A stretch of 64,000 nt of DNA from an uncultured virus (IMG/VR IMGVR_UViG_3300037991_003250) (taxonomy: Duplodnaviria > Heunggongvirae > Uroviricota > Caudoviricetes): IMG/VR virus record IMGVR_UViG_3300037991_003250; one strand, written 5' to 3'. Shown piece after piece: positions 5,166 through 64,000 of this stretch. Each line of letters starts with the position of its first letter. The first letter of the stretch is position 1. Under the pieces are notes generated by a model, which saw nothing but the letters and a program-made list of their open reading frames with translations, ran no database searches and was not told where the DNA came from. A program made the translations under genes and the position numbers.

Positions 5166-5220
5166 TTTGATTTTAGCGGTTTGTTGAAACAATTAAGAAG
5201 GGGAGAAAGTGGCCGGATAT

Positions 5221-18861: not shown

Positions 18862-18883
18862 ACCAAAGAAAGGAGATGAATTT

Positions 18884-19735: not shown

Positions 19736-19883
19736 TGAAAGAATAACTGTATGTGCTGGTTGTGAAGACGCGGGTGTATGGGTTGATGAGCGCGTTGTGT
19801 ATCGCGTGACCGGAGAAGAAGGATCGATACCCGAACAAATACTGCTTATCACTTGCGAATGCGGCCACGAACAAGAAGCATAG
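19728..19883 (+). CDS. Small Zn-ribbon protein
   Basis: CAGC...CECGH; SD GGAG. Confidence 0.55.
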   Translation: MDDERITVCAGCEDAGVWVDERVVYRVTGEEGSIPEQILLITCECGHEQEA

Positions 19884-19891
19884 GTGGTGAT

Positions 19892-20893: not shown

Positions 20894-21039
20894 TTAGAAT
20901 GCAGATATTAGGAACGATAAAGACTTGCTTTTGTGGATGGACCGGAGAGGTTGGCGTATTGATGCAACACGGCAAACCAATATGCCCCGCTTGTTTTAGA
21001 GAATTAAGTATGATGAGATGTGAAGGTTGCTCAGACTAA
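20890..21039 (+). CDS. Small Zn-finger protein (49 aa)
   Basis: CFCGW...CPAC...CEGC; ATGA overlap with primase stop. Confidence 0.5.
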   Translation: MIRMQILGTIKTCFCGWTGEVGVLMQHGKPICPACFRELSMMRCEGCSD

Positions 21040-21072
21040 CCCTTCATATATTCATCATTATTTTTACGGGTC

Positions 21073-21771
21073 ATGTTGATAGTGGATGACCGAGAAAACG
21101 AGGTCGTCATAAATAAAATAATGGCTAAATTAGGTGATGCTGATGCTAAAGGCGGCAAAGCCAAAGTCAGACGATTAACTGCGGCAGACTATATCATAGG
21201 CAATCGTGGTATCGAGGCTAAGGAAATAAATGACCTTTACCGTTCTATTCTCGGCATGGGAAGGACACGGACAATCTTAGATCAATTGAGAGATTTAGAC
21301 GAGGAATTTGACGAGCCTATGCTTGTCGTCTATGGAACAACCCTCAAGCCCTATGTGCGAGGTAAAATGACTAAGCGAGATTACGCTATCGAAACCGCTA
21401 AGATGAAAAAAACAATCCTTTCTTTTAAGCAGACCTTCTATCAAAGATTTCCACGAATCAAATACATGGAATTTGCTACGATGGAAGAATTTGTTGATTT
21501 CTTAGCGGTGTCGCACACACAAATGGAAGTAGTCAAGAAGGCTAAACAACCACGCCCTGTTGCTGGAAGGCCGCTCGATCCGAGAGTATCGGCACTAACA
21601 CACATACACGGTATTACACCGGAGAGGGCGGAAGCCGTCTTGAAGAAATTTGGTTCGATACCCAACCTTCTTCTCAAGAAAACCACACAGAAGGAATTGA
21701 TGGAGATAGAGGGAATAACCCGCACGATGGCGAGAAAAATACTCGCTCTTAGAAATGATTACTCAAATTGA
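21073..21771 (+). CDS. ERCC4/XPF-family structure-specific nuclease with HhH motifs
   Basis: IVDDRE, ADYII, IEAK..DL..SI; C-terminal tandem HhH. Confidence 0.88.
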   Translation: MLIVDDRENEVVINKIMAKLGDADAKGGKAKVRRLTAADYIIGNRGIEAKEINDLYRSILGMGRTRTILDQLRDLDEEFDEPMLVVYGTTLKPYVRGKMTKRDYAIETAKMKKTILSFKQTFYQRFPRIKYMEFATMEEFVDFLAVSHTQMEVVKKAKQPRPVAGRPLDPRVSALTHIHGITPERAEAVLKKFGSIPNLLLKKTTQKELMEIEGITRTMARKILALRNDYSN

Positions 21772-42200: not shown

Positions 42201-44080
42201 GTGGGTCCTGTCGGCCCTGTCGAACCCGCCGGACCTGTTGGGCCCGTTGGTCCTGTTGGGCCAGCCGGTCCTGTGCTACCATCCGAACCATCACTTCCAG
42301 CCGGTCCTGTAGGACCACTTGGTCCTGTTGGTCCTGTAGGCCCTGTTGGGCCTGTAGCCCCCGCAGGTATAGAGAATGCGAAAACCTTTGCGGTGTCCGG
42401 CCCGCTTGCCGTTATGCCTATTGGTCCTGTGCTTGCTGATGGTGTTCCAAACCCTGCGGCTGGTCCTGTAGGACCTGTAGGACCTGTTGAACCATCCGAC
42501 CCATCCGATCCATCTGAACCTGCCGGACCTGTGGGTCCTGTTGGGCCTGTAGGTCCTGTAGGACCTGCCGGACCTGTTGCACCGGCTGGAATAGAAAAGG
42601 CAAAAACCTTAGCGGTATCGGGGCCACTTGCTGTTACACCAACAGGGCCGGTCGAAGCAGTAGGCGTATCAAATCCTGCGGCTGGTCCGGTTGGGCCACT
42701 TGGTCCTGTAGGGCCTGTTGCGCCCTGTGGTCCTGTCGGGCCTGTAGCACCATCTGAGCCATCTGAACCATCACTTCCAGCAGGACCGGTAGGTCCTGTA
42801 GGGCCTGTAGGACCTGTTGGTCCGGTTGGCCCACTTGGTCCTGTTGGTCCGGTTGCACCAGCAGGAATGCTAAATGCGAATACTTTAGCCGTGTCCGGCC
42901 CACTTGCTGTTACACCTATTGGACCTGTGGATGCAGTAGGTGTATCAAAACCTGCCGCCGCGCCGGTAGGTCCTGTGCTTCCCGTAGGTCCTTGAGGACC
43001 GGTTGGACCTGTTGCGCCCGTATCTCCTGTAGGCCCTTGAGGACCGGTTGGACCACTTGGGCCTGTAGGCCCTGTTGGTCCTGTAGCACCGGCTGGAATT
43101 GTAAAAGCGAAGATTTTTGCAGTATCGGGGCCGCTTGATGTAATACCTATTGGTCCTGTTGAAGCGGTTGGCGTTCCGAATCCGGCGGCACTTCCTGTTG
43201 GGCCTGTTGGGCCTGTCGGTCCGGTCGGCCCTGTCGAACCATTAGAACCCGCAGGGCCGGTAGGCCCTGTCGGTCCGGTCGGTCCGGTCGGTCCGGTTGC
43301 GCCGGTATCACCCTTAGCAGATAATACCGCCCAATAATCACCGTTAGGTGGCTCTTGGCCGGAATGCGCCGCCGTAGCAATATATGAATTTCCATTGTGA
43401 GTAACTGCATCGTCAATAGAATAAGATGTGCCGCTACTCCACGCACCCTCAAAGACTAATCCTTCCGGTCCTACTGCACCCGCCGGACCTGTAGGTCCTG
43501 TCGGGCCGCTTGGTCCTGTTGGACCTGTAGGTCCTGTCGGACCGGTGCTTCCTGTGGTTCCTGTTGGTCCTGTATTACCTTGTGGTCCGGTTGGGCCTGT
43601 CGGACCGGTTGGTCCTGCTGGACCCGTAACACCAACAGAAGAAAAGACTACCCATGCGTCAGATCCTACTTTACGAATAGTAGCGAGAGAATATTGGGCG
43701 ATACTTGTTGTTCCGCTAACTGTAACACCACCACCTGCGGCAAGTGTTAGTGTTCCAGCCCCTTTGTTCATAACCTTTAATTCGGTTTTATCAACAGGAA
43801 ATGCAACACTACTATTTGGTGGAACGGTAAAAGAAATAGCCGAGCCTTTGTTAGCCATTACTACTCGGCCTTCGTCTGTGCGTGTAAAGGTGTAATCATC
43901 GGTTTTATCAACAACGGGTCTTACATCAGCCGATTGTCCGGCGGTGGTGCTACCATCACCGAAGAAAACGAATCCGCTATCAGCATCCTTGAATAACTGT
44001 GCGGCGTGTGGTGTTACAGTCAGCCTATCGGCTTGTGTAGTAAAAAGAAGGTTTTTGTTATCCGTTAGAACATCAACCAT
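39239..44080 (-). CDS. Collagen-like fibre protein (1613 aa)
   Basis: Long Gly-Pro-Thr tracts interrupted by 8 AAGF.TP..STGP...KVFAF.IP modules and 3 CBM-like W..Y...D.V.HNG.SY modules. Confidence 0.92.
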
Positions 44081-44129: not shown

Positions 44130-45641
44130 TTAGTCGAATTGAATCCATATTGTCGCTTCCGCATCATTTAAGTCAGTAGTGCCGCTTTTTCTCCTAAGAG
44201 ATAATGTGTCGCCAGCGACAAAAGATAGAGAAGGAACATCCGTAACTTTTGAATTATTACTGTTTAATGTATTTGCCGCAAAAGAAATATCAACATCTGA
44301 TGTGCTACCGTCTGATGCGAGGGTTTTTCTTATTGTAAATGTATTATTTGCAGACCCGCTTATTGTTCCCGAAAAATGAAGGCTTATTGTATGCGGCGAT
44401 CCAGCGTAAGGCATAACGATTTCTGCGGGTGTAAATGCAACACCTGTGTTTGTGTCTAAAGAAGCCTTTGAATAATATAACGGGTGTAGTCTAAAGCGAT
44501 TAGTTACTAATCTTTCGCCTGTTCCGCCGTAAGCAGTAGGTAATAATTCATCTGTTCCGCGCACACGATAAATACCATCAGATATTTGTTGGAAATTCCA
44601 ATCACCGTTAATTATAGGTGGTTTTATTGTATGTATTTCTGCGGTATTAGTCGATCCATAATCAGCATTACCATAAAAACGACCGTTAATTACTAACTCA
44701 TTACAATTTAAGCGAGTATTAGCATTTATTTTATAGTAATAAGATGTAGTGGTTGATTCTTCAATTACCAATTTATTATATTTAGCCGTAAATAAAGATG
44801 TGCTAACTCCGAAATTTGTATCGCCTGTTACGGGTAATGTTGAGTTAGCAGTAGGTCTTAAATGTAAGCATGAATAACCCCAATCAAAAGTATTATTGGC
44901 TATGTTTTGTATAGCACCGTTGATTTCAAATATTTTATTTTTATCATCATGTGTTTTTGAAAGAGGCTGGACTCTAACATTAGGGTTATTATTAAAATTT
45001 AGACTTAACATAGATACATAACCAAAGTCTGTATCTTTTGTTAATTTAGGTATAGTATCAGCGTCATAATTTTGATAATCGTTAGAAGTTACAAAAGTTG
45101 TAACACCGGAAGCAGGATCGATTTTAACATTAGGATAAACACCGTCTGCTAAAGAAAATTCAACCGCACCACCATTAACAAAAGAAAATGTGGTATTTTC
45201 TCTTGACGCTTCTCTATCAAAAATACCATTTGTGCTTGTATCGAATTTACTATCTGTAGTATATCTTACGGCGTATTTACTTGTTGAGCCACCTGCGTTA
45301 TCGTAATTTGCGCCTGTTGGTGTTGTTTCAAAATTAAATACTGTTCCACTACCCATTGAAAATACTTCTGCTTGTTCAACAATCAAACCAACACCATTTG
45401 ATAGCGTTATTGTTTGGCCGCTAAATTGGACTAACGGTGTTGCACCACCAAAAATAGCATAATCATTATGCACATGGATTGCTTGAAATCCTATATCACC
45501 TAAATTAGTCATATCACAAATACGGGTGCAAACACCATCAAAATGCACTTCATCAGAAGCAGTAGGTAAAACACCGCCGCCCCAATTTGCGGCCACGCTT
45601 GCATCTGTTGATGTGCCGCCAGCCCATTTAATTGTCGCCAT
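44130..45641 (-). CDS. Adhesin-like virion protein
   Basis: WAGG.STD.S..ANW....LP...D.V.F N-terminus; Asn/Thr-rich. Confidence 0.55.
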   Translation of the reverse strand: MATIKWAGGTSTDASVAANWGGGVLPTASDEVHFDGVCTRICDMTNLGDIGFQAIHVHNDYAIFGGATPLVQFSGQTITLSNGVGLIVEQAEVFSMGSGTVFNFETTPTGANYDNAGGSTSKYAVRYTTDSKFDTSTNGIFDREASRENTTFSFVNGGAVEFSLADGVYPNVKIDPASGVTTFVTSNDYQNYDADTIPKLTKDTDFGYVSMLSLNFNNNPNVRVQPLSKTHDDKNKIFEINGAIQNIANNTFDWGYSCLHLRPTANSTLPVTGDTNFGVSTSLFTAKYNKLVIEESTTTSYYYKINANTRLNCNELVINGRFYGNADYGSTNTAEIHTIKPPIINGDWNFQQISDGIYRVRGTDELLPTAYGGTGERLVTNRFRLHPLYYSKASLDTNTGVAFTPAEIVMPYAGSPHTISLHFSGTISGSANNTFTIRKTLASDGSTSDVDISFAANTLNSNNSKVTDVPSLSFVAGDTLSLRRKSGTTDLNDAEATIWIQFD

Positions 45642-52424: not shown

Positions 52425-52499
52425 ATTTACAAGGTATGTTAGTTATCCTATAAAGGTTGGTTTTTATTTTTTTAATGATTTTGCGTTTTTTAGAAAGAA

Positions 52500-52641
52500 T
52501 AAAACGCTTTACTGCGGATTTATTGTTTATTTATTTTATTTCTTCAAAGATATGTAAGGGAAATAGAGGGGGAACAAAAATACCTTTGAAGAAAAAAAAG
52601 AATAATGGTAATCGTTATACTGCGACTCGTTTATTTTTTCT
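52500..52641. repeat. Palindromic AT-rich element, copy B (inverted relative to copy A)
   Basis: CTTCAAAGATA(52542-52)-N28-TACCTTTGAAG(52581-91); 52523-52558 is the reverse complement of 5101-5136 at 35/36. Confidence 0.85.
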
Positions 52642-52715
52642 GAGGCCGGAAAAAACATTGGAAATAATATGTGTTTATACTAACCTTTAATAAATACCCG
52701 AACATCGTTAGGTTC

Positions 52716-54125
52716 ATGGGGAAACGCTATCACGGTGGAGAAGACCTTATCGCCCAACACATAAACAAAGGTTTTCCAAATGATAAAGAATTTGCAGTAT
52801 TTTTGAACGAATTAGAACCAAGACGATCAATTGACTCATGGCGTATTAAAGTCGGCAGGTATCGCAAGGCTAATCCCTACGAACAACCAAAACAGGAAGT
52901 AATACACACATACTATGACGAAGGTAAAGACCAATACTTGACCTTCTTATCTCATATTGATAACATATTAGTCATTAGTGGTAAAGACCATAGGAATATG
53001 CGCCGCTCTTATTCTAATGAAGGCGGCGGTTTAACTATTGACGAAATGTGCGCTGAGTATGAAATGGATAGCATTACAATGTCTGCGTATATACGCGCAT
53101 ACAATTGGAAGCATACCATGAATCCTTTAACCGATGAAGAAATCACTTTGAAGGACACATCAAGTCTTGTGCAGGATTACCTTTCAATTAAGCGACAAGA
53201 AGTGGTCCTAAAGGCACAGAAGCAATTGAAAAAGGACTTAGAGGCTGATGCAACGGCATGGAGAGAGTTTAAGCATACTATTTATGATGATTTCCAGACC
53301 CTTGTGCCGAAGATTAAATCAACGGCTAAGAAGCCTAAGACTAAGGCGGCACACGAATACGCTCTCGTCTTATCCCCAACAGATCTTCACTTTGGAAAAT
53401 ACGGCTGGAAGGATGAAGTCGGAGAAGAATACGATATGGATATTGCTAAAGAGCGACTTATCGCAAGCACCGAAGCACTACTAACTCGACTACCACACCT
53501 GCCGGAAAAGATAATCCTAACTGCTGGTAGCGATTGGTTCCATGTTGATAACGACAACGGCACTACTACCAAAGGCACACCGCAAGATACCGATGCGACA
53601 CCTGCTGAAATCTTGATGAAGGGTTGCTCTTTGGCTCGCCAGCATATTGATATGTTAAGAAAGGTAGCACCCGTTGATGTAGTCCTCATGGCCGGTAATC
53701 ACGACAGGCATACTTCTCTTATGCTTATGATGTATCTTGAAGCGGCATACGAACAATGCGAAGATGTATCAGTAGTAATTAGTCCTCAATCACGACAATA
53801 TGTGCAGTATGGCGACAACCTGCTCGGATTTACTCATGGTGATAAGATTCGGCTTAACACACTACCTGCTATTATGTCTAACGAAAAAAGAGAGGCATGG
53901 GGTGAATGCCGTAATCATGTATGGTTTCACGGTCATTTGCATCATCTCAAGATTGCCGATACAAACGGTGCTACCGTAATTCAATTGCCGAGTCTTAGCG
54001 GCCACGACAGATACCACGCTCGTTCCGGCTATGTTATGGAACGTAAAGGTCTGTGCGGCCACATGATAGACAAGACTCTCGGTGTAGTGGGTAACTTCTT
54101 CATACCGGTGGTTAAAGATGAGTGA
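52716..54125 (+). CDS. Calcineurin-like metallophosphoesterase with N-terminal helical extension
   Basis: DLHFG, GSDWFH, GNHD, THGD, GHLH. Confidence 0.85.
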   Translation: MGKRYHGGEDLIAQHINKGFPNDKEFAVFLNELEPRRSIDSWRIKVGRYRKANPYEQPKQEVIHTYYDEGKDQYLTFLSHIDNILVISGKDHRNMRRSYSNEGGGLTIDEMCAEYEMDSITMSAYIRAYNWKHTMNPLTDEEITLKDTSSLVQDYLSIKRQEVVLKAQKQLKKDLEADATAWREFKHTIYDDFQTLVPKIKSTAKKPKTKAAHEYALVLSPTDLHFGKYGWKDEVGEEYDMDIAKERLIASTEALLTRLPHLPEKIILTAGSDWFHVDNDNGTTTKGTPQDTDATPAEILMKGCSLARQHIDMLRKVAPVDVVLMAGNHDRHTSLMLMMYLEAAYEQCEDVSVVISPQSRQYVQYGDNLLGFTHGDKIRLNTLPAIMSNEKREAWGECRNHVWFHGHLHHLKIADTNGATVIQLPSLSGHDRYHARSGYVMERKGLCGHMIDKTLGVVGNFFIPVVKDE

Positions 54126-55614
54126 TACTAACTTTTCTATGGAGAGAAGCAGGAAGGACATTTCCTATTTCTATAAATGGCTCGGCTACACATGGGGTAA
54201 GCACATCGGAGAATGGATGGAGTTATATTCCGATAGAAAAGGTGCATCCGTTCATCGTGTCTGTATTATCGCACCGAGAGATCATTCCAAATCAACAACC
54301 CTTCGTGTTAAATTATTGCACCAATGCCTCTTTGAAAAGAAGGGTGATGGTTCGCCTTTTACCTGCTGGCTTATCTCAGCGAGTAAAGATACTGCCGCCC
54401 AAAGACTTGAGGAAATACGAGGCGACCTAAAAAAACACCCACAGTTAAGAAAATACATTAGCCCCTCTAAAGGCAACAAATTAGAATTGCATTTTACTAA
54501 CGGCGCATGGATTCGTGCTACATCTGTTGGTTCTGCGATTCGTGGGGCGCACCCTGCCTGTGTAGCATTTGACGATGTGTTGGTTGATTCAGACGATACC
54601 AGCCCTAAAGCCCTGCAATCATGGTATAAGAAAGCAATTATTCCTATGTTAAGCCCCGATTCGTGGTTTTACTGTGTGGGAACCCCAATGAGTATGGTTG
54701 ATTTATACCACACGGAAATGTTAGAAAACCCCGTTTGGAAATCAGCCGTGTATTCCGCTATTACTAACTATGATGAATGGCGAGCAAGTGATGGCGAGAT
54801 AGAACCCGAAGTGCTTTGGGAAGAATATCGAAGCGCGGCTTATCTTCTTGAGCAACGAGAAGGTATGGGTGAATTGGCTTTTGTGCAGGAGTATTTGTGC
54901 AGGGTTATTGATGACGAAGCCGCAGTATATCCGAGAGAGTTAGTAAGAAAACATCTCGACATGGAAGGAATATTCCAAACAGAAAAAGATGATAACTGCA
55001 AGTATAGTATTGGGTTTGACCCCGCACACGGTTTAGGAAAGGACTTTTCAGTTATGGTTGTCCTCAAGCAAGACCAAGAGGGCTTTATCCACTTTGTAAA
55101 TATGTGGCGGCGTAATGATTTCCCACCGGACAGACAAGCAGACATGATTATCGAATGGAATAAGAGATATGGTTATCCTGCCTTCGCATCCGAAGATGTG
55201 GGATTCCAGCAATTATACAAGAGTCTTATTGAGCAAAAGAATGCAAATGTGGATTATCGCGGTAGCAAAGTTAGCAACCGCACACTAAAACAAGGTTTGC
55301 TTAACAGACTTCGTGTTTGGTTTGAGCGGGAGTTAATTATATTCCCATACGGCGACCACAACACACGAATGCAAGTGAATACTCTCTTTGACGAATTGGA
55401 AACACACGCATGGAAAAACGGCCTCATTGAAGACTTAGGAAAACACAACGACTGTGTTATGGCCTTTGCACACGCAATAGACCAATTCCAAGCAAAGGAA
55501 TTTGAAATGCCCGTTATTATGAAGAAGGCGGAAGCCGGAGAATGGTTGGGCGGCTCTAAAACAAGACTAAATCGTGGGGCTAAAGGTATAGGCGGGAAGG
55601 TGATTAACAGATGA
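54118..55614 (+). CDS. terL: Terminase large subunit
   Basis: APRDHSKST, IRG, FDD, VGTP, QEYLC, GFDPA, HNDCVMA. Confidence 0.92.
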   Translation: MSDTNFSMERSRKDISYFYKWLGYTWGKHIGEWMELYSDRKGASVHRVCIIAPRDHSKSTTLRVKLLHQCLFEKKGDGSPFTCWLISASKDTAAQRLEEIRGDLKKHPQLRKYISPSKGNKLELHFTNGAWIRATSVGSAIRGAHPACVAFDDVLVDSDDTSPKALQSWYKKAIIPMLSPDSWFYCVGTPMSMVDLYHTEMLENPVWKSAVYSAITNYDEWRASDGEIEPEVLWEEYRSAAYLLEQREGMGELAFVQEYLCRVIDDEAAVYPRELVRKHLDMEGIFQTEKDDNCKYSIGFDPAHGLGKDFSVMVVLKQDQEGFIHFVNMWRRNDFPPDRQADMIIEWNKRYGYPAFASEDVGFQQLYKSLIEQKNANVDYRGSKVSNRTLKQGLLNRLRVWFERELIIFPYGDHNTRMQVNTLFDELETHAWKNGLIEDLGKHNDCVMAFAHAIDQFQAKEFEMPVIMKKAEAGEWLGGSKTRLNRGAKGIGGKVINR

Positions 55615-55898
55615 GAACGAAATTCGGACCAAAGAAAAGAAAGGAATTAGCCAACGATGCAATCGTAAAATTGTTTAACGAGGGCTACTTTGACGAATGG
55701 CGATTGGCGCGTGAAATCTCCGAACAAATCACAAAAAATATCCCCTCTCGATGGGGTAACTTTAGACCGGAAGCCGTTAGATTCGCTATGCTCAAAACAA
55801 AATTACCATTCGTAACACGCAATAAGCACCAAAGACTTGAATGGCGAGCCGATGAGGGGAATGAGGGGATCGGCTCAAATACAGATGAGCAAAAGTGA
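55611..55898 (+). CDS. Winged-helix-like basic protein
   Basis: WRLAREISEQI...PEAVRFAM...LEWR. Confidence 0.5.
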   Translation: MRTKFGPKKRKELANDAIVKLFNEGYFDEWRLAREISEQITKNIPSRWGNFRPEAVRFAMLKTKLPFVTRNKHQRLEWRADEGNEGIGSNTDEQK

Positions 55899-56169
55899 TT
55901 TAAAAAAATTTGTAAAAAATTTCGCGTGAGGGTAGCCATACCACAACGCCGGACTGCGGCTGATCTTTGGCGGCAAATTGCAGACCATAGCGGCGAGGGC
56001 GTATGGTTAGGCATGAGATGCAGGGGTGACCCCCCTTGAGTCCATCCAGCGAGGCCCACAGGGTGATTTTAGGGGTATTCCCCGATTATCTCCGCCGAGC
56101 AAATGATCATTGAATTTTCAAATCTCAATCGAGCCTTTCGGCCAAATCAAGAATTTGATTTTGAAAGGT

Positions 56170-56202
56170 GGGCTGGTGGCGGTTATCCGCCGCCACCAAC
56201 CC
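56170..56202 (-). terminator. GC hairpin after the 56216 gene
   Basis: GGGCTGGTGGCGG...CCGCCACCAACCC. Confidence 0.55.
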
Positions 56203-56215
56203 GATTTTATTTCGT

Positions 56216-57352
56216 TCAGACTTTGAACATAGACCAGCGACCGAGAACCGAAGTCGTCAATCGTGCCGTTTCGTAATTCTTGTTTGACTTATCCTTGAGG
56301 GTTGGGCTTAGTCCAATCCTCAAAGCATGAACCAAAGGTGCGACCCTTTGAACGTCAGCGATAGTCGCATCAACCACGCCTCTTTCAAAGCCAGCCTCAA
56401 ACACCCAAAACAGGAAGGTGAACGGTTCTCCGTTTGGGGTGGTTGCGTTGCCGATATATCGAACCATTTTACCAGCAATTGACTTCACGGTTCGCGCACC
56501 GCTTGTCGGTGCGATATCAATATCTAATTCCGGCACTACTAACCCGTTGGTTCTCTCGTATGCGAGAACGACTCTCGCGCCGGTCTTCTTCTGAACCTGC
56601 ACCTTGATGGGTTGGCGGTATTCTCCACCAATCAAGGCATAGGTCTTGAGGGTCGAGAACATATTGCCGCCGACTTCTCTTGATGACTCGACAACATCGC
56701 CGCCACAGGTCGGGCAACCCATGAACGGAGATGAGCCGAGCGGTAGCCATGATTCGGTTCCGCTCGGAGTATAGCAGCCGACACCATCGGCCACCTTTTC
56801 GCATACATATCTCGCACCCTGCTTAACCTGCTTAACCAATGAACGAGTTAATTTCTGTTCTTTGGTGTAGCCGTTGATGGCGTAAAGGTTGTTTTCTATC
56901 GCGTTCCCCCTGCTCAATTCAAACAGGACAGGCATTGACTCAAGAGGGCCAATGTTGCCTTTACCGGCCCACTTTACTAATTCCTTGATGCCGTCTGATT
57001 TAGCATTGTTTAGAACGACCTTGACCTTTCGGCCAATGGTTGAATGAAGAAGCCCCATTTGGCCCATTTCCACCACGTCAGCGAATGAAAACGGGGTCGG
57101 CCATACCGGAACATTTGCTTGAGGGCTAACTGCCTCAATTATTGCATCAATGTGGCTCGTCTTCTTTGCCTTGTTCTTTGGTGCGGCTTCGACCCTCTCC
57201 GAGAGAGCCTTAACCTTCTTCATCGGAAGAAGGCTAAGAGCCGCAACGATAAGGGATTTTAGCCACCCTATCGTTTTGACCTCAGCCGCCGCATTAACGG
57301 CGGTTGAGGCGTTCGTTTGTTGTGCCTCGTAGGTAATCGCATCGGATTCCAT
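56216..57352 (-). CDS. Hypothetical protein with central Zn ribbon (leaderless)
   Basis: TATATAC about 28 nt upstream of ATG 57352; YVC...GC...CPTCGG. Confidence 0.7.
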   Translation of the reverse strand: MESDAITYEAQQTNASTAVNAAAEVKTIGWLKSLIVAALSLLPMKKVKALSERVEAAPKNKAKKTSHIDAIIEAVSPQANVPVWPTPFSFADVVEMGQMGLLHSTIGRKVKVVLNNAKSDGIKELVKWAGKGNIGPLESMPVLFELSRGNAIENNLYAINGYTKEQKLTRSLVKQVKQGARYVCEKVADGVGCYTPSGTESWLPLGSSPFMGCPTCGGDVVESSREVGGNMFSTLKTYALIGGEYRQPIKVQVQKKTGARVVLAYERTNGLVVPELDIDIAPTSGARTVKSIAGKMVRYIGNATTPNGEPFTFLFWVFEAGFERGVVDATIADVQRVAPLVHALRIGLSPTLKDKSNKNYETARLTTSVLGRWSMFKV

Positions 57353-57447
57353 GAGCCGAGCGACTTCATGCGTAGTATATATGGCGTTCGTTTTTCGTAA
57401 CTCCTTTGGTTTGATTTCTTGAGGGTATGAATCCAACGAAATTTTAG

Positions 57448-57745
57448 CCGTTACAATAATAATAATATTTCTCGGATTTTTATTAAATTGCTCGATCTGA
57501 GCGTTACAATAATTTTTCCCACAGAAGCGTTACAAAAAAGAAAATCGTTACAATAAATAGAGTTACAATAAAAAAAGTTACAATAAAAGAAATCCGTTAC
57601 AAAAAAAGAAATCCGTTACAAAAAAGAGATTTGGGCGGGGCGTTACAATGATCAATGTAACGTGAGGCGGCGTTACAAAACGCCCCACCCGTTGAGTGTT
57701 ACAATTAGTATATGTTACAATTAAGCGGGGTTGGATCGTTACAAT
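57448..57745. repeat. GTTACAA box array, block A (~13 copies)
   Basis: Direct GTTACAAW copies separated by A-tracts. Confidence 0.9.
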
Positions 57746-57769
57746 TTTTTGGTTTCGGATTTTTCTTTT

Positions 57770-58195
57770 TCATTCTGACTTCACCCCGAAGTAGTTATCC
57801 CAATCTGTAAGGGATAGAGGCTGCCGACAGGCGGTGCAGTTAGGGCACTCCCATATTGGATATGATTCAAGGGTTTCTTCACCAGCAAGGCCGAAATAAT
57901 CGGTTTCAACGGACATTTTGAAATCGTGCTGGTTGTCTTTGCATAGCACCGGCCCAATCTTTTCTGATGGCTCAAATTTAACTTCCCATGCGATTCCGTC
58001 TTCGTCTTCGTATGTGTAAGACTTGATGATTTTACACGCCTTCGTAAAACGGCGTGATTGGAATGCGGGATTAGGGAAGGCCATGATGAATTGATAGAAT
58101 GCGTCATGTATTGCTTGTTGAATTGCGTAGTCCTTAGAGGGGTGATTAGCAACAATCTCAGCCATTTTGTTGAAGTCGCGGCGTGAGAGCATCAA
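57770..58195 (-). CDS. Hypothetical early protein
   Basis: SRRDF..MAEI...NPAF...RF.KAC motif seen in phage early proteins; C-terminal CPNC. Confidence 0.65.
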   Translation of the reverse strand: MMLSRRDFNKMAEIVANHPSKDYAIQQAIHDAFYQFIMAFPNPAFQSRRFTKACKIIKSYTYEDEDGIAWEVKFEPSEKIGPVLCKDNQHDFKMSVETDYFGLAGEETLESYPIWECPNCTACRQPLSLTDWDNYFGVKSE

Positions 58196-58665
58196 TTCAC
58201 CCCCCGACTCTCTAACTCGTCTTCAATGTCGCAGGAATAGCCTTGAACGCGCACCCCTTCCAATACGCAAGTTATCTCGGCTTGATGGTCGCAAGTGCCT
58301 TCAAACACGCAAGAACAGGTCTTGATTATCAATTGCTTGATGTTATGATAGAGGGAAAGTGGGTCGCTATCTTCGCCAGCGTCTAAGTCGGAGTCCTTGC
58401 GGATATTTTCGCGGGTAGCCGCTCTCAAGGAATCAATTTCTTCGTCTTCTCCGTTCCAGCCGTCATCGTCTTTGATTTTGGTTGTGATAATTCGCCCGTT
58501 GCATCCTGCTTCGGGGCATATTTCCCCGAATGAATCGGGGCTATTGTTAAGGTCGGTATGAACGAAATATTCGGTCATACCCCACATTTCGTCACTCGGT
58601 GTGCGGTAGTATTCGCGGTGACCGTGTTTCGCATACATGAAGGGCGTTGTGTCTGATTTTTCCAT
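58192..58665 (-). CDS. Acidic Cys-containing hypothetical protein
   Basis: SD GGGGTGG before ATG 58665. Confidence 0.6.
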   Translation of the reverse strand: MEKSDTTPFMYAKHGHREYYRTPSDEMWGMTEYFVHTDLNNSPDSFGEICPEAGCNGRIITTKIKDDDGWNGEDEEIDSLRAATRENIRKDSDLDAGEDSDPLSLYHNIKQLIIKTCSCVFEGTCDHQAEITCVLEGVRVQGYSCDIEDELESRGVN

Positions 58666-58820
58666 CAAACCACCCCCAAAACGCAGGTGCATAATGTTAG
58701 CACCGCATCTGTGCGACCAACGCACGAATTAAAGTCAATTGTTAGGGCCTCATCTATGGGGTTGCATCCGCAAGCCATGACCCGCCGTTAGCATTGTTGC
58801 TTATCAATACTATGCTAATT

Positions 58821-59195
58821 TATTGTAACGGTTATTGTAACGCAAATGATCATTTATTGTAACGCTCAAGCAGTAGCGAAGCGATCATGTTACAATAATT
58901 TCGTAACGCGGATCTAAGCCCGTTACAATAAAAAAAAGTTACAAAAAAAGCGTTACAATAAAAAAAAGTTACAATAAAAAAGTTACAATAACTCAGACCG
59001 TTACAATAAAACCGGTCTATAATATATGTCCTACCGTTACAATAAAAAAAATACCTAAAAAAACCGTTACAAAAAAGAGAAAAAAAGAGTTACAAAAAAC
59101 AAGCCAGATCTGGCGTTACAATAGCACGACTAAGGGAGTTACAATTAACCCCCTTAGCCGCTTGCGTTACAATCAATGATCTTCTGTTACAATAT
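58821..59195. repeat. GTTACAA box array, block B (3 reverse + ~14 forward)
   Basis: Orientation switch at 58857-58895. Confidence 0.9.
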
Positions 59196-59621
59196 TCAGT
59201 CTAAAGTGGAAATGTATGAATGAACGAATTTGAATCTGTATTTGTAAATCGTAGGCCAATCGCGCAAATCATAGTAATGTCTGCTGACTTTAGTTACAAT
59301 CATTTTTGCTTCGTGTGGTATTGAAGAATATCTCAAATTTATGATTTCTGGTGTCGTCTTTGATTTGCCCCCATCAGCATACATTCCTTCTTCACCTTTC
59401 AGTATGTTTTCAACATAACAGCAGATATCCGCCATCCTATCCGCGTCATCATCGTCTAAGTCGTTCCAATCCATTTGGTCTTGCTGGTGAATTACCTTGA
59501 ATCGGTTATTTATCCCATCCCATGATTTTGCGAGTAATCCTTCCTCGCTACGAGCGAGGATAACCCGCTCATACTCTCTATTGCCGTTCTTCTCCTTGAT
59601 GATGCCCCAATGCAACCTCAT
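59196..59621 (-). CDS. Hypothetical protein (leaderless)
   Basis: Promoter variant AAACCACCGAAGCACTTATAT, with TATA 28 nt before ATG 59621. Confidence 0.65.
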   Translation of the reverse strand: MRLHWGIIKEKNGNREYERVILARSEEGLLAKSWDGINNRFKVIHQQDQMDWNDLDDDDADRMADICCYVENILKGEEGMYADGGKSKTTPEIINLRYSSIPHEAKMIVTKVSRHYYDLRDWPTIYKYRFKFVHSYISTLD

Positions 59622-59663
59622 AATTAGTCGTAGGCGGGGTTGGATATAAGTGCTTCGGTGGTT

Positions 59664-60497
59664 TATTGTAACGGCATATTTCGATCTGGATTTAGCAGTT
59701 ACAATAATTTCGTAACGCATGATCGCTTTTTACCGTTACAATAATTCAGATCAGGGGATCGGGAGTTACAATAACTCGGACAACCACCTATATAACCTTT
59801 TAGTTACAATAACTCGGACAGGGAGTCTATAAAGATTACCCGTTACAATAGCGATTCTCGCCGGTTTAAGTCTTTCGTTTGTAACACCCAATTTCATTTG
59901 TGGTAAACAGGCTCGCAGTATAGCGTTTTTATGTGGTGCGTTACAATAATTAACAAAATTGGCGATTTTGCGGCCCAAGTGGGGGGGTTGAGCGTCATTT
60001 TTTCGTTACAATAAATTTAAATCGATCTACGCAATTTTTCCCCAAAAAAACGCAAATTTCGCAGGGTTACAAAAAAATTGTAACTTTTTGATTTGTAACT
60101 ATTTTACCCTTATTGTAACGTTTTATTGTAACATCCGTCTGTTACAATTATTATTGTAACAACGACTTTTTTTTGTAACTCCCCAAATCAAATAGTGCAA
60201 AAAAGAAAGCGAGTGTTGTAAATAAAACTGACTGAAAAAAGTAAAGCCGATGTGCTTAATGCACTAAGGGTTTTTATTGTAACTTAATGTGGGTGAATGC
60301 AAATTATTGTAACTATTATTTATATCTTCGATCCTGAGCGTTACAATAAAAAATCATGGTTTTTTCCTGCGTTACAATAAGCCGTTACAAAAAGAACCAC
60401 CCGTTACAAAAATGTTCATGCGTTACAATATATAAATCTCGATCTAAACCGTTACAATATACCGAGAGAAATTTTCGCATAAAAGATCCGTTACAAT
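59664..60497. repeat. GTTACAA box array, block C (~26 copies, mixed orientation)
   Basis: ~830-bp non-coding gap between divergent genes. Confidence 0.9.
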
Positions 60498-60563
60498 AGG
60501 GCTAAAATTAAGTGAGAATGCCGCGTAGTAAAGTATATATAGTAGTTATTTCCTGCTCTAATT

Positions 60564-61085
60564 ATGAGAAAAGTCATACCTACGCGCATATGTCCTATAT
60601 GTAGTGGAGAATTTGAGGCAAATACGAGAGGCCGACCACGCCGCTTCTGTTCTCCCGAATGCACCACCAAAGCAAAGAATACTAACTTTCAACGCTATGA
60701 AAGATTTGACCGGCCAAAGTCAAAGGGCGGTCGGGGAAATAAAATCCTTCGACCGTGTGGGTGTCCTACTCGCCAACATAAACCCGATTGCGTTTTATCT
60801 CGCGCATTCCATGTGTATGAAAATTCCAATGCACACCATGACGCAATATCAGCCAGCAACGCTTCAAAGATTGCTAAAGCAAACAGAAGACTTGAGGCTC
60901 AACGACTACGGGCGGCAAACAAGCGAGCCGCCGCAATCAAGAAAGCCGGAATGATTCCGGTTGATTCAATCAGTAAAAATCTCCCTATCTATATCGCGTG
61001 TGTGAAATGTAAGGGGCGAGGCCCGATAAGGGATTTCACCGCATGGAAGCAAGCAGACAGAACGGGAGTATGTAAGAATTGTTAG
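60564..61085 (+). CDS. Multi-Zn-finger basic protein
   Basis: CPIC...F...GRPRRFCS.EC, CGC...H..C, CVKC...CKNC; TATATATA upstream. Confidence 0.7.
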   Translation: MRKVIPTRICPICSGEFEANTRGRPRRFCSPECTTKAKNTNFQRYERFDRPKSKGGRGNKILRPCGCPTRQHKPDCVLSRAFHVYENSNAHHDAISASNASKIAKANRRLEAQRLRAANKRAAAIKKAGMIPVDSISKNLPIYIACVKCKGRGPIRDFTAWKQADRTGVCKNC

Positions 61086-61096
61086 GAGATGAAAAG

Positions 61097-61429
61097 ATGG
61101 ATAGACACATTGAGAAAATAGACGAATTGAACAATGAAGAATTGAGGATGATTGCTCATGCGTTAGGCGACAAAGAATCCCGCATGAGAGAATTGGCTCA
61201 CGATGAGAACCACTTGAATTTATGTGCGGTTCGGCAAATAAGATTAGGTAAAAAACAAGGCCGCGATTACGCTAAGGAATGCGAGGAACGAAATAATCAT
61301 CGAACATGGTTCGTTGAAATGATGGAATTTTACAAGTCGGAACGCAAAAACCAATACCTACAAGACGCGAGAAAATACAGGAGATTATCAAATCTGTTTT
61401 TTGATGTAGTCTGTGAAAGAATAGAATAA
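61097..61429 (+). CDS. Hypothetical helical protein
   Basis: SD AGGAG before ATG. Confidence 0.6.
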   Translation: MDRHIEKIDELNNEELRMIAHALGDKESRMRELAHDENHLNLCAVRQIRLGKKQGRDYAKECEERNNHRTWFVEMMEFYKSERKNQYLQDARKYRRLSNLFFDVVCERIE

Positions 61430-61454
61430 AGATCACCGCTAAAAGATATAAATA
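61428..61454 (+). promoter_or_regulatory. Conserved viral early-type promoter
   Basis: AAAGATCACCGCTAAAAGATATAAATA; ATG 61476. Confidence 0.85.
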
Positions 61455-61475
61455 CTAAGATAAAGAGGACTAATT

Positions 61476-61811
61476 ATGGAAAGAAGCCACACCAACGCAA
61501 CCGTCTTACACTTGATGAACAAGACCCAAAAATTCATGGGCATTCATTCAAATGAATGTGATGCGATAGCCGCCTTTCATATCATAACGGGCGAGCAATT
61601 CAATTATGTTTTCGGCCATACTTTCAAGGGTAGCCGAAACCACCTTTCTTTTGATATGTGCATTGAGTCTATGATAAGAAACGATTTCCCGCGCCTAAGT
61701 GATGATGAAGTCAATGATATGTATTTCAAAGTCATGGAAGTGAGAGATAAATTGCGAGCGTTTAGAGAGAACCTATGCCTTGAGTATGGGAACGACAAGC
61801 AGGACTCGTAA
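61476..61811 (+). CDS. Hypothetical protein (leaderless)
   Basis: Single-gene cassette bounded by promoter and terminator. Confidence 0.65.
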   Translation: MERSHTNATVLHLMNKTQKFMGIHSNECDAIAAFHIITGEQFNYVFGHTFKGSRNHLSFDMCIESMIRNDFPRLSDDEVNDMYFKVMEVRDKLRAFRENLCLEYGNDKQDS

Positions 61812-61819
61812 TCGGATCA

Positions 61820-62012
61820 TTGTAACGGGTCGGTGGGGTTAGAACCCCATCGGCCCTAAATTTTTTTTGTCTATCAAAAATTATTGTAACGGATCTGGAT
61901 CCGAAATTATTGTAACGCTTTGTATCGGCCAGCACGAAGCGTTACAAAAAAAGATGATCTGAAAAAGTTACAATAAAAAAAGAAAAAAGCGCGTTACAAA
62001 AAAGTTACAAAA
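61820..62012. repeat. GTTACAA box array, block D (3 reverse + 4 forward)
   Basis: Lies between terminator and next promoter. Confidence 0.88.
61827..61868 (+). terminator. Hairpin plus T-tract terminator
   Basis: GGGTCGGTGGGGTT-AG-AACCCCATCGGCCC then TAAA-T8. Confidence 0.75.
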
Positions 62013-62031
62013 AAACAAATTCAATCTAAAA

Positions 62032-62058
62032 AAAGATCACCGCTAAAAGGGTTAAATA
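62032..62058 (+). promoter_or_regulatory. Conserved viral early-type promoter
   Basis: AAAGATCACCGCTAAAAGGGTTAAATA; ATG 62080 opens a 38-aa ORF. Confidence 0.85.
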
Positions 62059-62508
62059 CTAAGAAGAAAACGGAATATCATGGTTGAAACATACACCAAA
62101 GAGGATTTACCCGCGACCGACCTTAACGAATGGGGCTACCCATCCGATGACTATATGCACATCGGCAACGGATTATTCGTAAAGAGGGGAGAGTAAAAAT
62201 TATGAATCAGACTAAGATATTTTACACGGACATGACTAAAAAAACAGACGCTAAAACCTGCAAGATTCACCACCCAAAAATTAGCGGTGAAAACCGTTGC
62301 CGGATATGCAATAAAAGCAGGAGTGAGGAAGAATGAATGAGGAAGAAAAAATAATCGTGGATGCTTTAAGGTATTATGCCGCAGGTTTGAAAATTGCTTA
62401 TGATAGACAATTCACTTCACATCACCCCCCCAACAAACCACGCTCAGAAAGAAATTTAATCAAGTCAAAAAAATGCCGAGATATTATTAAAAAAATGGAG
62501 AGTTAAAA

Positions 62509-62709
62509 ATGAAAGTTAGATGTAGTAATTGCCTATTTGGATTTCATGTCGCCGCGCCCGATAGAAGCGTTTGGAATAGAAACGGTAAATTTGATATTAT
62601 CACCTGCTTTGAATGTGGCTTCGACAATTGGAGAAAGATTCCTCATTCAGACAAAAAGATTTCAAAGAGGCCCGACAAAATAACCACCGTTGTTTTGATT
62701 GACGATTGA
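62509..62709 (+). CDS. Small Zn-ribbon protein
   Basis: CSNC...CFECG; SD GGAG. Confidence 0.6.
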   Translation: MKVRCSNCLFGFHVAAPDRSVWNRNGKFDIITCFECGFDNWRKIPHSDKKISKRPDKITTVVLIDD

Positions 62710-62714
62710 TCTAT

Positions 62715-62741
62715 AAAGATCACCGCTAAAAGGGTTAAATA
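62715..62741 (+). promoter_or_regulatory. Conserved viral early-type promoter
   Basis: Identical 27-mer to 62032-62058; ATG 62763 opens a 44-aa Cys-rich ORF. Confidence 0.85.
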
Positions 62742-62893
62742 GTAGTAATGAGAGGGTTAATTATGGGAGAAGAAGTCCATACAGAAGGAATGCTGACTAA
62801 TGAATTATTTAGGCGAATGATGGAAGCCGAGAATTGGTGTTGTGGCCGATTCTGTGATGTTCCAAATTCCCCTTTATGCACCTGCGAGGATAA

Positions 62894-63289
62894 GTGAAAA
62901 AAATGTATATGAAGATAGATGAACAAGATTTTGTAAATGCCTTTGATAGAATGAATCGGTCTAATAATTTCTCGGTGATTGGTCGCCGTATGTTATTTGA
63001 ATACTTGACCGGTGTTGAAGATGATGTGGGAGAAGAAATGGAGTTAGATGTAATCGCATTCTGTTCTTCTTTTACCGAGTATGAATCAATTGATGAATAC
63101 TGCGACACCTATGATTCAAGCCCGCTCACACGCGACCGCTTGAACCATGCCGTGAAAGAAGAAGATATTGACTACCTAAGAGAAATCTTAGGTCATAAGC
63201 ACCATGCCGTTATAACATGGTTTAATCACCCATTAGTGGGTTATGGTGGCTACCAAAGGGTTTTCAGAATGATTCTGAGTGATTTCTAA
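62894..63289 (+). CDS. Acidic hypothetical protein of a widespread phage early family
   Basis: F..AF....R..NFS..G...LFEYL...E...GEE.ELDVIA.C..F.EY. Confidence 0.65.
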   Translation: MKKMYMKIDEQDFVNAFDRMNRSNNFSVIGRRMLFEYLTGVEDDVGEEMELDVIAFCSSFTEYESIDEYCDTYDSSPLTRDRLNHAVKEEDIDYLREILGHKHHAVITWFNHPLVGYGGYQRVFRMILSDF

Positions 63290-63522
63290 TGCTTTACACA
63301 AAAAGATACGATAGAAAAACTAAGACCTATCATTACAGAAAGCACGATGGCTCAAATGTCTTTTACGGATTTAGGGCCGGTTTTGGTGGTGATGAAGAAT
63401 GGACTTTTTGCTCGGCATTAGATAATTCGGCTTTTGGTATGCCTTCATTTGAGCAGGGAGTCTATACAATGATGGGGTATAAAGATTTCATGGTTTGGAT
63501 GGAAAACAGAAAGAGGCCATGA
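63289..63522 (+). CDS. Hypothetical protein
   Basis: TAATG-coupled 77-aa ORF. Confidence 0.55.
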   Translation: MLYTKRYDRKTKTYHYRKHDGSNVFYGFRAGFGGDEEWTFCSALDNSAFGMPSFEQGVYTMMGYKDFMVWMENRKRP

Positions 63523-63529
63523 TTGGTTA

Positions 63530-63695
63530 TTGTAACGCCTCGCCGTCTAAATGGCGGCGGGGCTAAATTTTTTTTTCGGCTAAAAAATTATTGTAACGCT
63601 TCTGGATCGATCCCGCGCCAGCGTTACAATAAAAATATATCATAACTCGTTACAAAAAAAGAAATCCAAAAAAGAGTTACAAAAAAGTTACAAAA
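63530..63695. repeat. GTTACAA box array, block E (2 reverse + 4 forward)
   Basis: Same architecture as block D. Confidence 0.88.
63537..63576 (+). terminator. Hairpin plus T-tract terminator
   Basis: GCCTCGCCGTC...GGCGGCGGGGC then TAAA-T9. Confidence 0.7.
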
Positions 63696-63702
63696 AAAGA
63701 AA

Positions 63703-63729
63703 AAAGATCACCGCTAAAAGATATAAATA
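63703..63729 (+). promoter_or_regulatory. Conserved viral early-type promoter
   Basis: Identical 27-mer to 61428-61454. Confidence 0.85.
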
Positions 63730-63750
63730 ATATGACGATGAGGATTTATT

Positions 63751-64000
63751 ATGTCGAAAGAAGACTACTTCCTATGCACATGGAATGGAAATGAAATAAT
63801 AGAATTACACACGAAAGAAAGCCTTTGGGAACAATACAAAGAAACGGGTTTGTTTGAAGATGATGATTGGTTTTATGAAACGGAAAATATAGAAAACGTA
63901 AGCCTAACGGATTTGATGAGCCTATGTATCTATAATGAAGATAAAGATACGGTTCATTACAACGATAATATGACTATCATGTATGTCGGAAATGATTTTC
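63751..64000 (+). CDS. Acidic hypothetical protein, 3'-truncated
   Basis: MSKEDYFLCTW... open to the window end. Confidence 0.55.
   Translation, partial: MSKEDYFLCTWNGNEIIELHTKESLWEQYKETGLFEDDDWFYETENIENVSLTDLMSLCIYNEDKDTVHYNDNMTIMYVGNDF

Follow-up and report, generated by a model that had tools for sequence, protein, structure and literature searches.

The 64,000-nucleotide (nt) stretch of the uncultured virus record IMGVR_UViG_3300037991_003250 (hereafter, the window) carries 70 exact copies of the word GTTACAA in a hypervariable early region, 69 of them arranged in five blocks (A to E, Table 1) beside a gene for an unclassified zinc protein. We tentatively propose, giving the proposal somewhat less than an even chance, that these GTTACAAW boxes are operator-like cis sites of the phage zinc protein and that they would control and insulate the early cassettes between which they lie. 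The proposal rests on the exactness and conservation of the boxes, on the presence of comparable arrays with other words in related phages, and on the co-variation of box type with the zinc protein.

The window phage is siphovirus-like, about 65 kb long, and encodes terminase, portal, tape measure, a collagen-like fiber, a family-B polymerase, a clamp, and a clamp loader. Its TerL has relatives among cultured phages at no more than 26% identity, and no TerL relative was found in 185,579 species genomes. Because no integrase or repressor family turned up in PHROGs and Pfam scans of the open reading frames (ORFs) of the window, the phage is apparently lytic. Between 55.9 and 64 kb, the ORFs are tiny and have no family matches in PHROGs or Pfam; leftward cassettes run toward terL and rightward ones toward the replication genes.

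Exact boxes in the early region

GTTACAA matches the window 74 times on the two strands, against 9.16 +/- 2.80 times in 100 dinucleotide-preserving shuffles (largest shuffle count, 16). All but four of these copies (those at 24715, 30449, 45088, and 45098) fall within 57450-63693. By position relative to the ORFs, 69 of the 70 region boxes are intergenic; 52 are on the plus strand and 18 on the minus strand. At the eighth position, 51 boxes have T and 19 have A, with no G or C in any of them, the 3' flanks are A-rich (A = 82-84% at +8/+9), and the GC content of the blocks is 33-37%. The boxes are all-or-none: the exact word is enriched, whereas one-mismatch variants are at background density, 2.69 per kb both inside and outside the region, and therefore the signal is the exact word and not composition. 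Spacing between same-strand neighbors is irregular, 11-39 bp start to start (minimum 11, most 14-39).

The arrays are not an assembly artefact because independently assembled contigs from four public runs of three studies cover them at an identity of at least 99%; a single independent record of 7437 nt spans 56000-61803. No RNA runs containing window 56000-64000 were listed. These results bear out an earlier note on this DNA, which had counted about 69 boxes in five intergenic blocks with few copies elsewhere, had read the consensus as GTTACAA(T/A) with A-tract spacers, and had named k-mer enrichment and arrays in relatives as checks. Local composition, a lack of arrays in relatives, and misassembly, which the note gave as grounds for rejecting its reading, do not apply here. 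Its structural claims, that the boxes converge on cassettes and that blocks D and E share one grammar, also hold (see below).

Some further observations concern the boxes. A head-to-head pair, GTTACAAAAGTTGTAAC, is located at 45088-45104 inside the structural-region ORF 44130-45641(-), distant from the arrays. GATC occurs 24 times in the 2.3 kb of blocks A to E (57437-63750), compared with about once per 640 bp in the remaining window, frequently a few bases upstream of a box or within the spacers of the switch pairs described below. The phage encodes an N6/N4 DNA methylase at 17812-18861.

Lineage-specific words across the phage family

A TerL search of IMG/VR yielded at least 213 related stretches, of which 80 were kept as loci. 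We surveyed the 37 loci in which 3 kb or more of sequence follows TerL, defining an array as some 7-mer present in at least 20 copies, and found arrays, of the same or a different 7-mer, downstream of terL in 29 of the 37. In 44 stretches upstream, taken as a control, the maximum 7-mer count was 17. All of the arrays are downstream of terL and no more than a few kb from it. In the interval from terL to the zinc protein gene, 354 boxes are forward and 108 reverse (12 genomes), and the in-array density of one-mismatch variants is at most about 1.1 times that outside in 12 of 14 family genomes.

The words are lineage specific, with variants such as GTTACATAA, CTACAAAA, and ACTACATAAC. With flanks, the word is cGTTACAAtAA in the window and G002, aaGTTACATAAt in G007 and G008, cGTTACAAAAc in G003, tGTTACAAAAc in G005, GGTTACAAAAACa in L200, L190, and L181, aGGTTACAAtttt in G004, aACTACATAACA in L156, aACCCTACAAAAtA in L182, L196, L197, and L203, and cTGcCTACAAAAcat in L187, L204, and L210; other lineages use GGACAAAAA, ATCTACAAAT, and AAATCCAAA. 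Among the matches listed (123 viral loci), variably spaced arrays of the GTTACAA word were found only in this TerL family, the other viral loci being regular tandem repeats. The three-box pattern was also present at 42 loci in species-genome contigs, nearly all of them strict tandem repeats with a period of 10, 20, or 21.

The exception among these 42 loci is G011 (L231), a Planctomycetaceae metagenome-assembled genome (MAG) of 5.2 Mb and 38% GC, in which the word, with the consensus aTTTtTTGTAAC(a/g)AtAAat, occurs genome-wide and is enriched outside ORFs. G011 has no genes in common with the phage at that locus, and it contains no homologue of the zinc protein. We treat it as a lead and do not take it as the host.

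Conservation of boxes and replacement of the early module

In blocks A to C, 11 of 392 box positions differ between the window and G002, compared with 128 of 1413 non-box positions. All 11 differences are in block B, where a deletion in G002 removes one box; none of the 91 box positions of block A and none of the 182 of block C differ. The cassette genes of the two phages are 63-96% identical at the DNA level. In five further genome pairs, box positions differ by 0-4.7%, compared with 7.5-22.8% for the remaining array span. The box positions are the best-conserved bases of the hypervariable region in all six genome pairs, which suggests that the boxes are under selection as exact words.

The window and G007 are collinear, with 80-94% DNA identity, outside the early stretch, while the window from 55.9 kb to its end and positions 17690-27233 of G007 (~9.5 kb, up to the replication genes) have almost nothing in common. 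The early stretch, a module of 8-9 kb, is swapped whole between these two phages, and therefore the word changes by module replacement and not by drift.

The leftward early cassettes vary strongly among close relatives. About 3 of about 10 breakpoints between the window and G002 abut a box (57457/57460 and 59173/59193 are breakpoints of this kind), the rest being at gene boundaries or at the promoter motif described below; with so few breakpoints at boxes, cassette shuffling has the look of a by-product. In contigs of the same marine samples, the sequence departs from the window at 57460, 58155, 59193, 61097, 62188, 62334, 62755, and 62769, and hence strain variants with alternative cassettes exist side by side; one of the loose ends reads like the G007-type promoter motif.

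A zinc protein as the candidate reader

The zinc protein encoded at 60564-61085 stands out as a specific candidate for reading the boxes; the earlier note had mentioned viral winged helix-turn-helix and zinc-finger proteins only as reagents. The protein has an N-terminal CxxC...CxxC ribbon containing RGRP, a motif that we take to be AT-hook-like, and continues with an invariant knuckle (R63-x-C65-G-C67...H72...C76), a long helix (88-127, 40 residues), and a C-terminal ribbon (C146/C149/C170/C173), the linkers being basic. With two ribbons, the knuckle, basic linkers, RGRP, and the long helix, it has the appearance of a DNA-binding protein.

A 16-member profile (alignment A1) detects the protein in the window and in 22 further contigs of the phage family, and the zinc-protein family is the only array-region gene found to be conserved across lineages. 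Twelve genomes, the window and 11 relatives, have the gene on the plus strand directly after the arrays, at the head of the rightward operon, with a short ORF in front of it in G007 and G008; in G004, L175, L200, and L190, it is on the minus strand. The family is tiny, with 35 clusters among 1.84 billion representatives, and the matches in the ESM Atlas are to unnamed viral clusters only. In Pfam, the window protein had only a sub-threshold match to zf-CGNR (22.3 bits against a cut-off of 24), and there was no PHROGs match (E <= 0.001), nothing below E = 1.5 in the PDB sequence profile search, and nothing at E <= 0.001 with Foldseek; a wide VIA-align search returned matches to the long helix only (Z <= 5.6). 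The 11 longer members of the family likewise contain no Pfam domain, and no helicase-loading, ATPase, or initiator-like domain was found in the zinc protein by Pfam scans.

Co-variation of box type with the zinc protein

The TerL proteins of the window and G007 are 96% identical and most genes are 80-99% identical, whereas the zinc proteins are only 36% identical, and the boxes are GTTACAAt in the window and GTTACATAAt in G007. The C-terminal part of the zinc protein is the best conserved between the two. Within the clade with CTACAAA boxes, TerL identity is 95% or more across the whole of the two groups L182/196/197/203 and L187/204/210; the zinc protein is 62% identical between these groups and 80-95% identical within them, and the two box-flank types (aACCCTACAAAAtA and cTGcCTACAAAAcat) coincide with the two zinc-protein types. 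Across 18 genomes, box distance correlates with zinc-protein distance given TerL (partial Mantel r = 0.64, permutation p = 0.0002), and the correlation with TerL given the zinc protein is not significant (r = -0.21). The box type thus appears to track the zinc protein rather than the terminase and virion genes. Proteins of the same clade that go with different boxes differ along their whole length, and no reading head could be assigned by way of specificity residues.

A large variable neighboring gene was also considered as the determinant of box type and rejected: L190 and L200 have the same boxes and zinc proteins that are 79% identical, with neighbor proteins that are only 34% identical.

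Proposed control of early cassettes and alternatives

In the scheme we favor, the zinc protein would be made early, from the first rightward gene, and would read the word of its own lineage, occupying the ~70 exact boxes across the intergenic control regions. Multi-site nucleoprotein complexes would then form over promoters and terminator-promoter junctions, turn down the early cassettes, including the operon of the zinc protein itself, and block read-through, so that neighboring transcription units would be insulated. Binding by the zinc protein, repression rather than activation, and the timing are all inferred.

Several points weigh against this scheme. The zinc protein gene is physically linked to the arrays, so that the co-variation may reflect linkage alone. 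The GTTACAA core is common to phages whose zinc proteins are only ~16-34% identical (window, G004, L175, G003, and L200), and therefore the core cannot be predicted from overall protein similarity; in G003, a window-like box goes with a zinc protein whose closest counterparts are those of the CTACA-type phages. In the clade with ~71% TerL identity, the zinc protein is kept but the arrays are small. The tail proteins of the window and G007 are 38-64% identical, and because of this difference the two phages may infect different hosts, in which case the motif might be host specified. The replication-module proteins 5209-5583 and 5564-6349 co-vary with the boxes in the same manner (three comparable genomes): they are 99/98% identical in G002 and 26/37% identical in G007, where the genes flanking them are ~90% identical. 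These two genes are a second swapped specificity module, possibly for an origin-binding protein beside the putative helicase 6331-7677. The spacing of the boxes is irregular (11-39 bp), so that a fixed cooperative geometry is not evident. A sigma-70 scan of 55500-64000 (-35/-10 pairs at 16-18 bp) gave 16 sites, compared with 20.1 +/- 4.6 in shuffles, i.e., no promoter excess, and the distance between a box and the CACCGC-type promoter motif of the window is not fixed (19 versus 32 nt). Transcription-factor sites are usually degenerate; 70 perfect cores out of 70 are atypical.

Binding of the boxes by a host protein (a nucleoid-associated protein, response regulator, or RNA polymerase subunit) that is recruited to the early region or titrated away from it, the variants reflecting hosts, seems unlikely to us. 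It would fit with the divergent tail proteins, with the occurrence of the same core alongside very different zinc proteins, and with the match of either box orientation to four of six bases of the TTGACA -35 consensus; but between groups of phages with TerL identity of at least 95%, only the flanks of the boxes change, and they do so together with the zinc protein, the variably spaced arrays are restricted to this TerL family among the 123 viral loci listed, and TerL has no relative in the species genomes. The MAG G011 uses TTTGTAACRA 1472 times, against 27 for the reversed control, which would suit a host factor as well; however, G011 is unrelated to the phages analyzed here, 60 other genomes of its order lack the motif, and in G011 it is not followed by -10-like hexamers (11% versus 10% background). 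We rate lower, as decidedly unlikely, the possibility that the arrays are origin iterons or copy-control sites, to which either the zinc protein or the rapidly evolving protein 5564-6349 beside the putative helicase would bind. The genes 5209-5583 and 5564-6349 are near-identical in G002, which has the same boxes, and strongly diverged in G007, which has different ones, and block C is AT-rich (35% GC) and lies at the point where transcription diverges. Iterons and initiators co-evolve, and the pairing of exact direct repeats with inverted ones at promoters corresponds to the classical iteron/operator duality of Rep proteins. Iterons are, however, usually phased, whereas the boxes are 11-39 bp apart without phasing; 70-90 boxes in five or more blocks, interleaved with genes over 4-8 kb, are far beyond known origins, the arrays are 6-8 kb from the replication genes, there is no DnaA box in the region, and the zinc protein has no helicase-loading or ATPase domain. 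About equally unlikely is single-strand recognition, in which a CCHC-like knuckle protein would bind arrays of UUGUAAC that transcripts carry past each cassette and immediately ahead of the terminators, and would tune termination, read-through, or mRNA decay. The forward bias of the boxes (12 genomes) is such that leftward transcripts read TTGTAAC, this word precedes the terminator stem by 0-1 nt in blocks D and E, and the invariant C-x-C-x4-H-x3-C appears to resemble the order of retroviral-type knuckles. Yet forward boxes just upstream of promoters would not be transcribed from those promoters, palindromic pairs suit duplex binding, and the 18 Pfam families that the 16 A1 members matched at E <= 1 do not include zf-CCHC.

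We consider it very unlikely that the zinc protein serves as the small terminase, which is otherwise missing, with the arrays forming an extended, lineage-specific pac region. No small terminase is recognizable anywhere in the window, the gene overlapping the terL start being phosphoesterase-like; the arrays are always near terL; the layout of the zinc protein (a DNA-binding-like N-terminal part, then a long helix in the middle, then a small C-terminal domain, the C-terminal part being the best conserved between the window and G007) is in general terms that of small terminases; and the protein is retained in the small-array clade. The pac site of P1 uses GATC-containing hexamer repeats, and the blocks contain 24 GATC in 2.3 kb where composition predicts ~7. 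However, known pac and cos regions are single and no longer than ~300 bp, whereas five blocks here are tied to terminators and promoters; the zinc protein gene heads an early-type operon and not a packaging module; no terminase family was matched in Pfam at E <= 1 (16 A1 members) or in PHROGs at E <= 0.001 (window protein); and other candidates for the small terminase are available, namely, the N-terminal 160 residues of 52671-54125 and the 95-residue ORF 55611-55898. The probability is slighter still that the boxes are polar signals, such as Chi-like end protection or a T5-type DNA-entry stop, or mere homology tracts for cassette exchange. The boxes are exact, strand-biased words, some breakpoints abut them, and the T5 injection-stop region is described as likewise large, untranslated, and repeat-rich (10.1101/866236). 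The assemblies of G007 and G008, however, pass straight through the arrays and break elsewhere; most breakpoints between the window and G002 are not at boxes; homology tracts would need neither selection on every box nor conserved 10-13-bp flanks; and the palindromes at promoter-like sites are left unexplained.

The earlier note had interpreted the boxes as a dedicated nucleoprotein platform and had listed specific functions for it. The first part, dedicated protein-binding sites, gains support from exactness, conservation, lineage variants, and co-variation with the zinc protein; the listed functions, including a decoy sponge for a host protein and DNA-entry control, stay hypothetical. A partition array is unlikely because no ParA/ParM partner NTPase appeared in PHROGs and Pfam scans of the window ORFs, the only P-loop matches being the clamp loader, AAA_24, and a weak FtsK-like match. 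As for an iteron or origin, the blocks do contain direct repeats and AT-rich spacers, but the spacing is irregular and 56-64 kb lacks DnaA boxes (the 22 window matches to TTATCCACA at <= 1 mismatch are all elsewhere); as for a scaffold for cassette shuffling, only a small share of breakpoints abut a box.

Returning to operator-like sites of the zinc protein, a bolder version, which we think improbable, would make the boxes and the protein a private address code of a lytic phage lineage. The word, an exact 10-13 bp, would be rewritten wholesale between near-identical phages and would mark the early host-takeover cassettes of the phage for exclusive control, so that co-infecting relatives with another word would be mutually blind or repressible; this would be an immunity-group system with a previously unknown zinc DNA-binding fold.

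The early regions of uncultured marine phages are treated as unreadable strings of tiny unknown genes. The arrays supply a grammar for them, with exact lineage-specific words marking the early control regions in a family of at least 213 related contigs, and account for non-coding DNA being the best-conserved part of a hypervariable region. If the pairing of word and zinc protein is true, it would provide a new type of zinc module for DNA binding, the specificity of which nature has already reprogrammed (GTTACAAT, GTTACATAA, CCTACAAAA, and others), a culture-free way to delimit early cassettes and control regions in metagenomic phage genomes, and a test case for the joint change of a regulator and ~70 sites.

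Comparison with known systems

Narrow literature searches found no description of this system, and among the matches listed to the word together with phage there were only primer-type ones. The logic of many oriented operators co-evolving with one protein is already known. What is new are the arrays, in which an exact word is repeated in tandem at variable spacing and only within the early region, in a family of marine phages that are apparently lytic, and the unclassified zinc protein.

In Cluster A mycobacteriophages (L5 gp71 type), there are 20-30 stoperators, with a consensus for each subcluster, and motif distance correlates with repressor distance (PMC6550527). Stoperators are, like the boxes, dozens of short asymmetric sites, mostly intergenic and in one dominant orientation, with a lineage consensus that tracks a protein, and some of them are in promoters although most are not. 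They differ in being single 13-bp sites spread genome-wide in temperate phages and bound by a helix-turn-helix immunity repressor, whereas here 70-90 boxes form tandem arrays, 11-39 bp apart, within a 4-8-kb early region with a candidate zinc reader. The omega protein (ParB-pSM) of pSM19035 binds six sites of 7-10 WATCACW heptads that overlap three promoters (PMC9499535). This system resembles the one described here in its non-palindromic 7-bp repeats, direct and inverted, in arrays that overlap promoters, and in the involvement of one small protein (here, a candidate); it differs in that its heptads are contiguous (at least four being required) and are bound by a ribbon-helix-helix dimer, and in that it is a centromere with a ParA partner, in contrast to the variable spacers, the lack of a ParA-like gene in family scans, and the unrelated protein found here. 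The injection stop signal region of T5 contains many repeats, inverted repeats, and eight DnaA boxes (10.1101/866236). Its similarities to the arrays are its large size, its lack of coding sequence, its richness in repeats, its position near early genes, and its arrays of a short protein-binding box. The T5 boxes, however, are those of the host DnaA and fall in a single untranslated region within a terminal repeat, unlike the five or more intergenic blocks described here, which have no DnaA boxes and no sign of terminal repeats at the arrays.

The iteron origins of P1 RepA, F RepE, and lambda O combine exact direct repeats, inverted repeats at promoters, and a co-evolving protein; the arrays differ from them in number, spread, irregular spacing, interleaving with genes, and in that no initiator-like domain was found. 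In the promoter-early stem-loops (PeSL) of T4-type phages, which are mobile regulatory cassettes, terminator and promoter modules bracket small hypervariable early genes. Blocks D and E, as paralogous terminator-promoter modules, and the cassettes, as genes that differ between close relatives, are similar to this arrangement; PeSLs are not known to contain tandem arrays of a short exact word or to have a dedicated binding protein.

Organization of the blocks

Block A is located between the gene 56216-57436(-) and the 3' end of the cassette 57770-58665(-). In block B, the reverse boxes adjoin the start of the gene 58192-58665(-), and the forward boxes reach the stop of 59196-59621(-). Block C separates the leftward cassettes from the rightward operon, transcription diverging there, and contains two head-to-head pairs (60066/60078 and 60141/60154). 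As modules, blocks D and E are paralogous: their column identity is 80%, and their terminator stems differ. In both, the order is stop, reverse box, terminator, reverse box(es), four forward boxes, and a promoter-like motif.

Convergent boxes flank all four complete cassettes (57770-58665, 59196-59621, 60564-61811, and 62080-63522), and 9 of the 10 block edges point toward the adjacent cassette, the exception being 57450, beside the gene 56216-57436. This convergent grammar is not family-wide; several relatives have head-to-head palindromes, GTTACAA-N6-TTGTAAC, instead.

Blocks B to E also contain switch pairs with start-to-start offsets of 31, 32 (three pairs), and 33, about three helical turns. 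They fold as stems of 10-14 bp (z = -1.6 to -5.1). A hairpin or integron-like reading of the switch pairs was rejected, the stems consisting of boxes alone; integron attC sites were rejected as well, the words misfitting the RYYYAAC/GTTRRRY consensus and the boxes standing in tandem arrays. No tyrosine recombinase was found in PHROGs and Pfam scans of the window ORFs.

Table 1. Boxes, switch pairs, and associated features of the window
Feature	Position	Strand	Description
Block A	57450-57744	+	13 GTTACAAW boxes, 13 forward and 0 reverse; GC 0.33
Leftward early cassettes	57770-59621	-	ORFs 57770-58195, 58192-58665, 59196-59621; no family match
Block B	58823-59192	.	3 reverse boxes, then 14 forward
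Switch pair TTGTAAC-N25-GTTACAA	58857-58895	.	In block B
Lone non-intergenic box	59293-59299	+	Inside ORF 59196-59621(-)
Block C	59666-60496	.	Mixed array, 16 forward and 10 reverse; densest; GC 35%
Switch pairs TTGTAAC-N25-GTTACAA	59666-59704 and 60307-60346	.	In block C
Zinc protein gene	60564-61085	+	173 residues; first gene after block C
Block D	61820-62010	.	1 reverse box, terminator 61827-61856 with T-run, 2 reverse, 4 forward
Switch pair TTGTAAC-N25-GTTACAA	61910-61947	.	In block D
Promoter-like motif GATCACCGCTAAAAGnnTTAAATA	62035-62060	+	Downstream of block D
Block E	63530-63693	.	1 reverse box, terminator 63537-63563 with T-run, 1 reverse, 4 forward
Switch pair TTGTAAC-N25-GTTACAA	63591-63629	.	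In block E

Promoter-like motifs and other elements

A conserved motif, GATCACCGCtAAAAGnnTTAAATA, occurs in eight copies in the window, before plus-strand genes and 25-30 nt ahead of strong ribosome-binding sites. Its CACCGCTAAAAG core starts at 61434, 62038, 62721, and 63709 in the array region and, far from any box, at 772, 2489, 3759, and 10157; the motif serves the rightward cassettes and the replication genes at the window start. Six of the eight copies have no nearby box, and the boxes are therefore not part of this promoter. The TATAAATA/TTAAATA part resembles T4 late promoters. The G007 version of the motif is AACTCACGATAAAAAAAnTTAAATACT, and additional cassettes of G002 are inserted between duplicated copies of the motif.

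In G005, G003, and G006, the palindrome GTTACAA-N6-TTGTAAC is accompanied in 8 of 14 cases by TATAGT or TATAGG exactly 17 nt after TTGTAA. These TTGTAA-N17-TATAG(T/G) arrangements are found at palindromic pairs only and point at the adjacent small gene; a protein bound at such palindromes would cover the -35-like hexamer.

A second repeat element of ~150 nt is present at 5020-5200(+) and 52490-52640(-), preceding the replication genes and the portal/late operon. It consists, in order, of a CGCAGTAnAGCG box, a T-run, a hairpin (CTTCAAAGGTA...TACCTTTGAAG), a aaataaaataaataaaca spacer, a GGCTCGCAGTATCACGG box, and a T-run. Its box (GGCTCGCAGTATAGCG) has five matches at <= 3 mismatches, with 0.2 expected, and is found once in block C (59910-59925) and once in the array region of G007. 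The main operons may use the element as a class of promoter or control site.

The gene 52671-54125, which overlaps the terL start, encodes a 484-residue phosphoesterase/exonuclease-like protein that is conserved across the family. The collagen-like tail fiber gene at 39239-44080 (1613 residues) has a GC content of 55% within a 42% GC genome, and the near-complete assemblies of G007 and G008, which are continuous through the arrays, break inside the repeats of this fiber.

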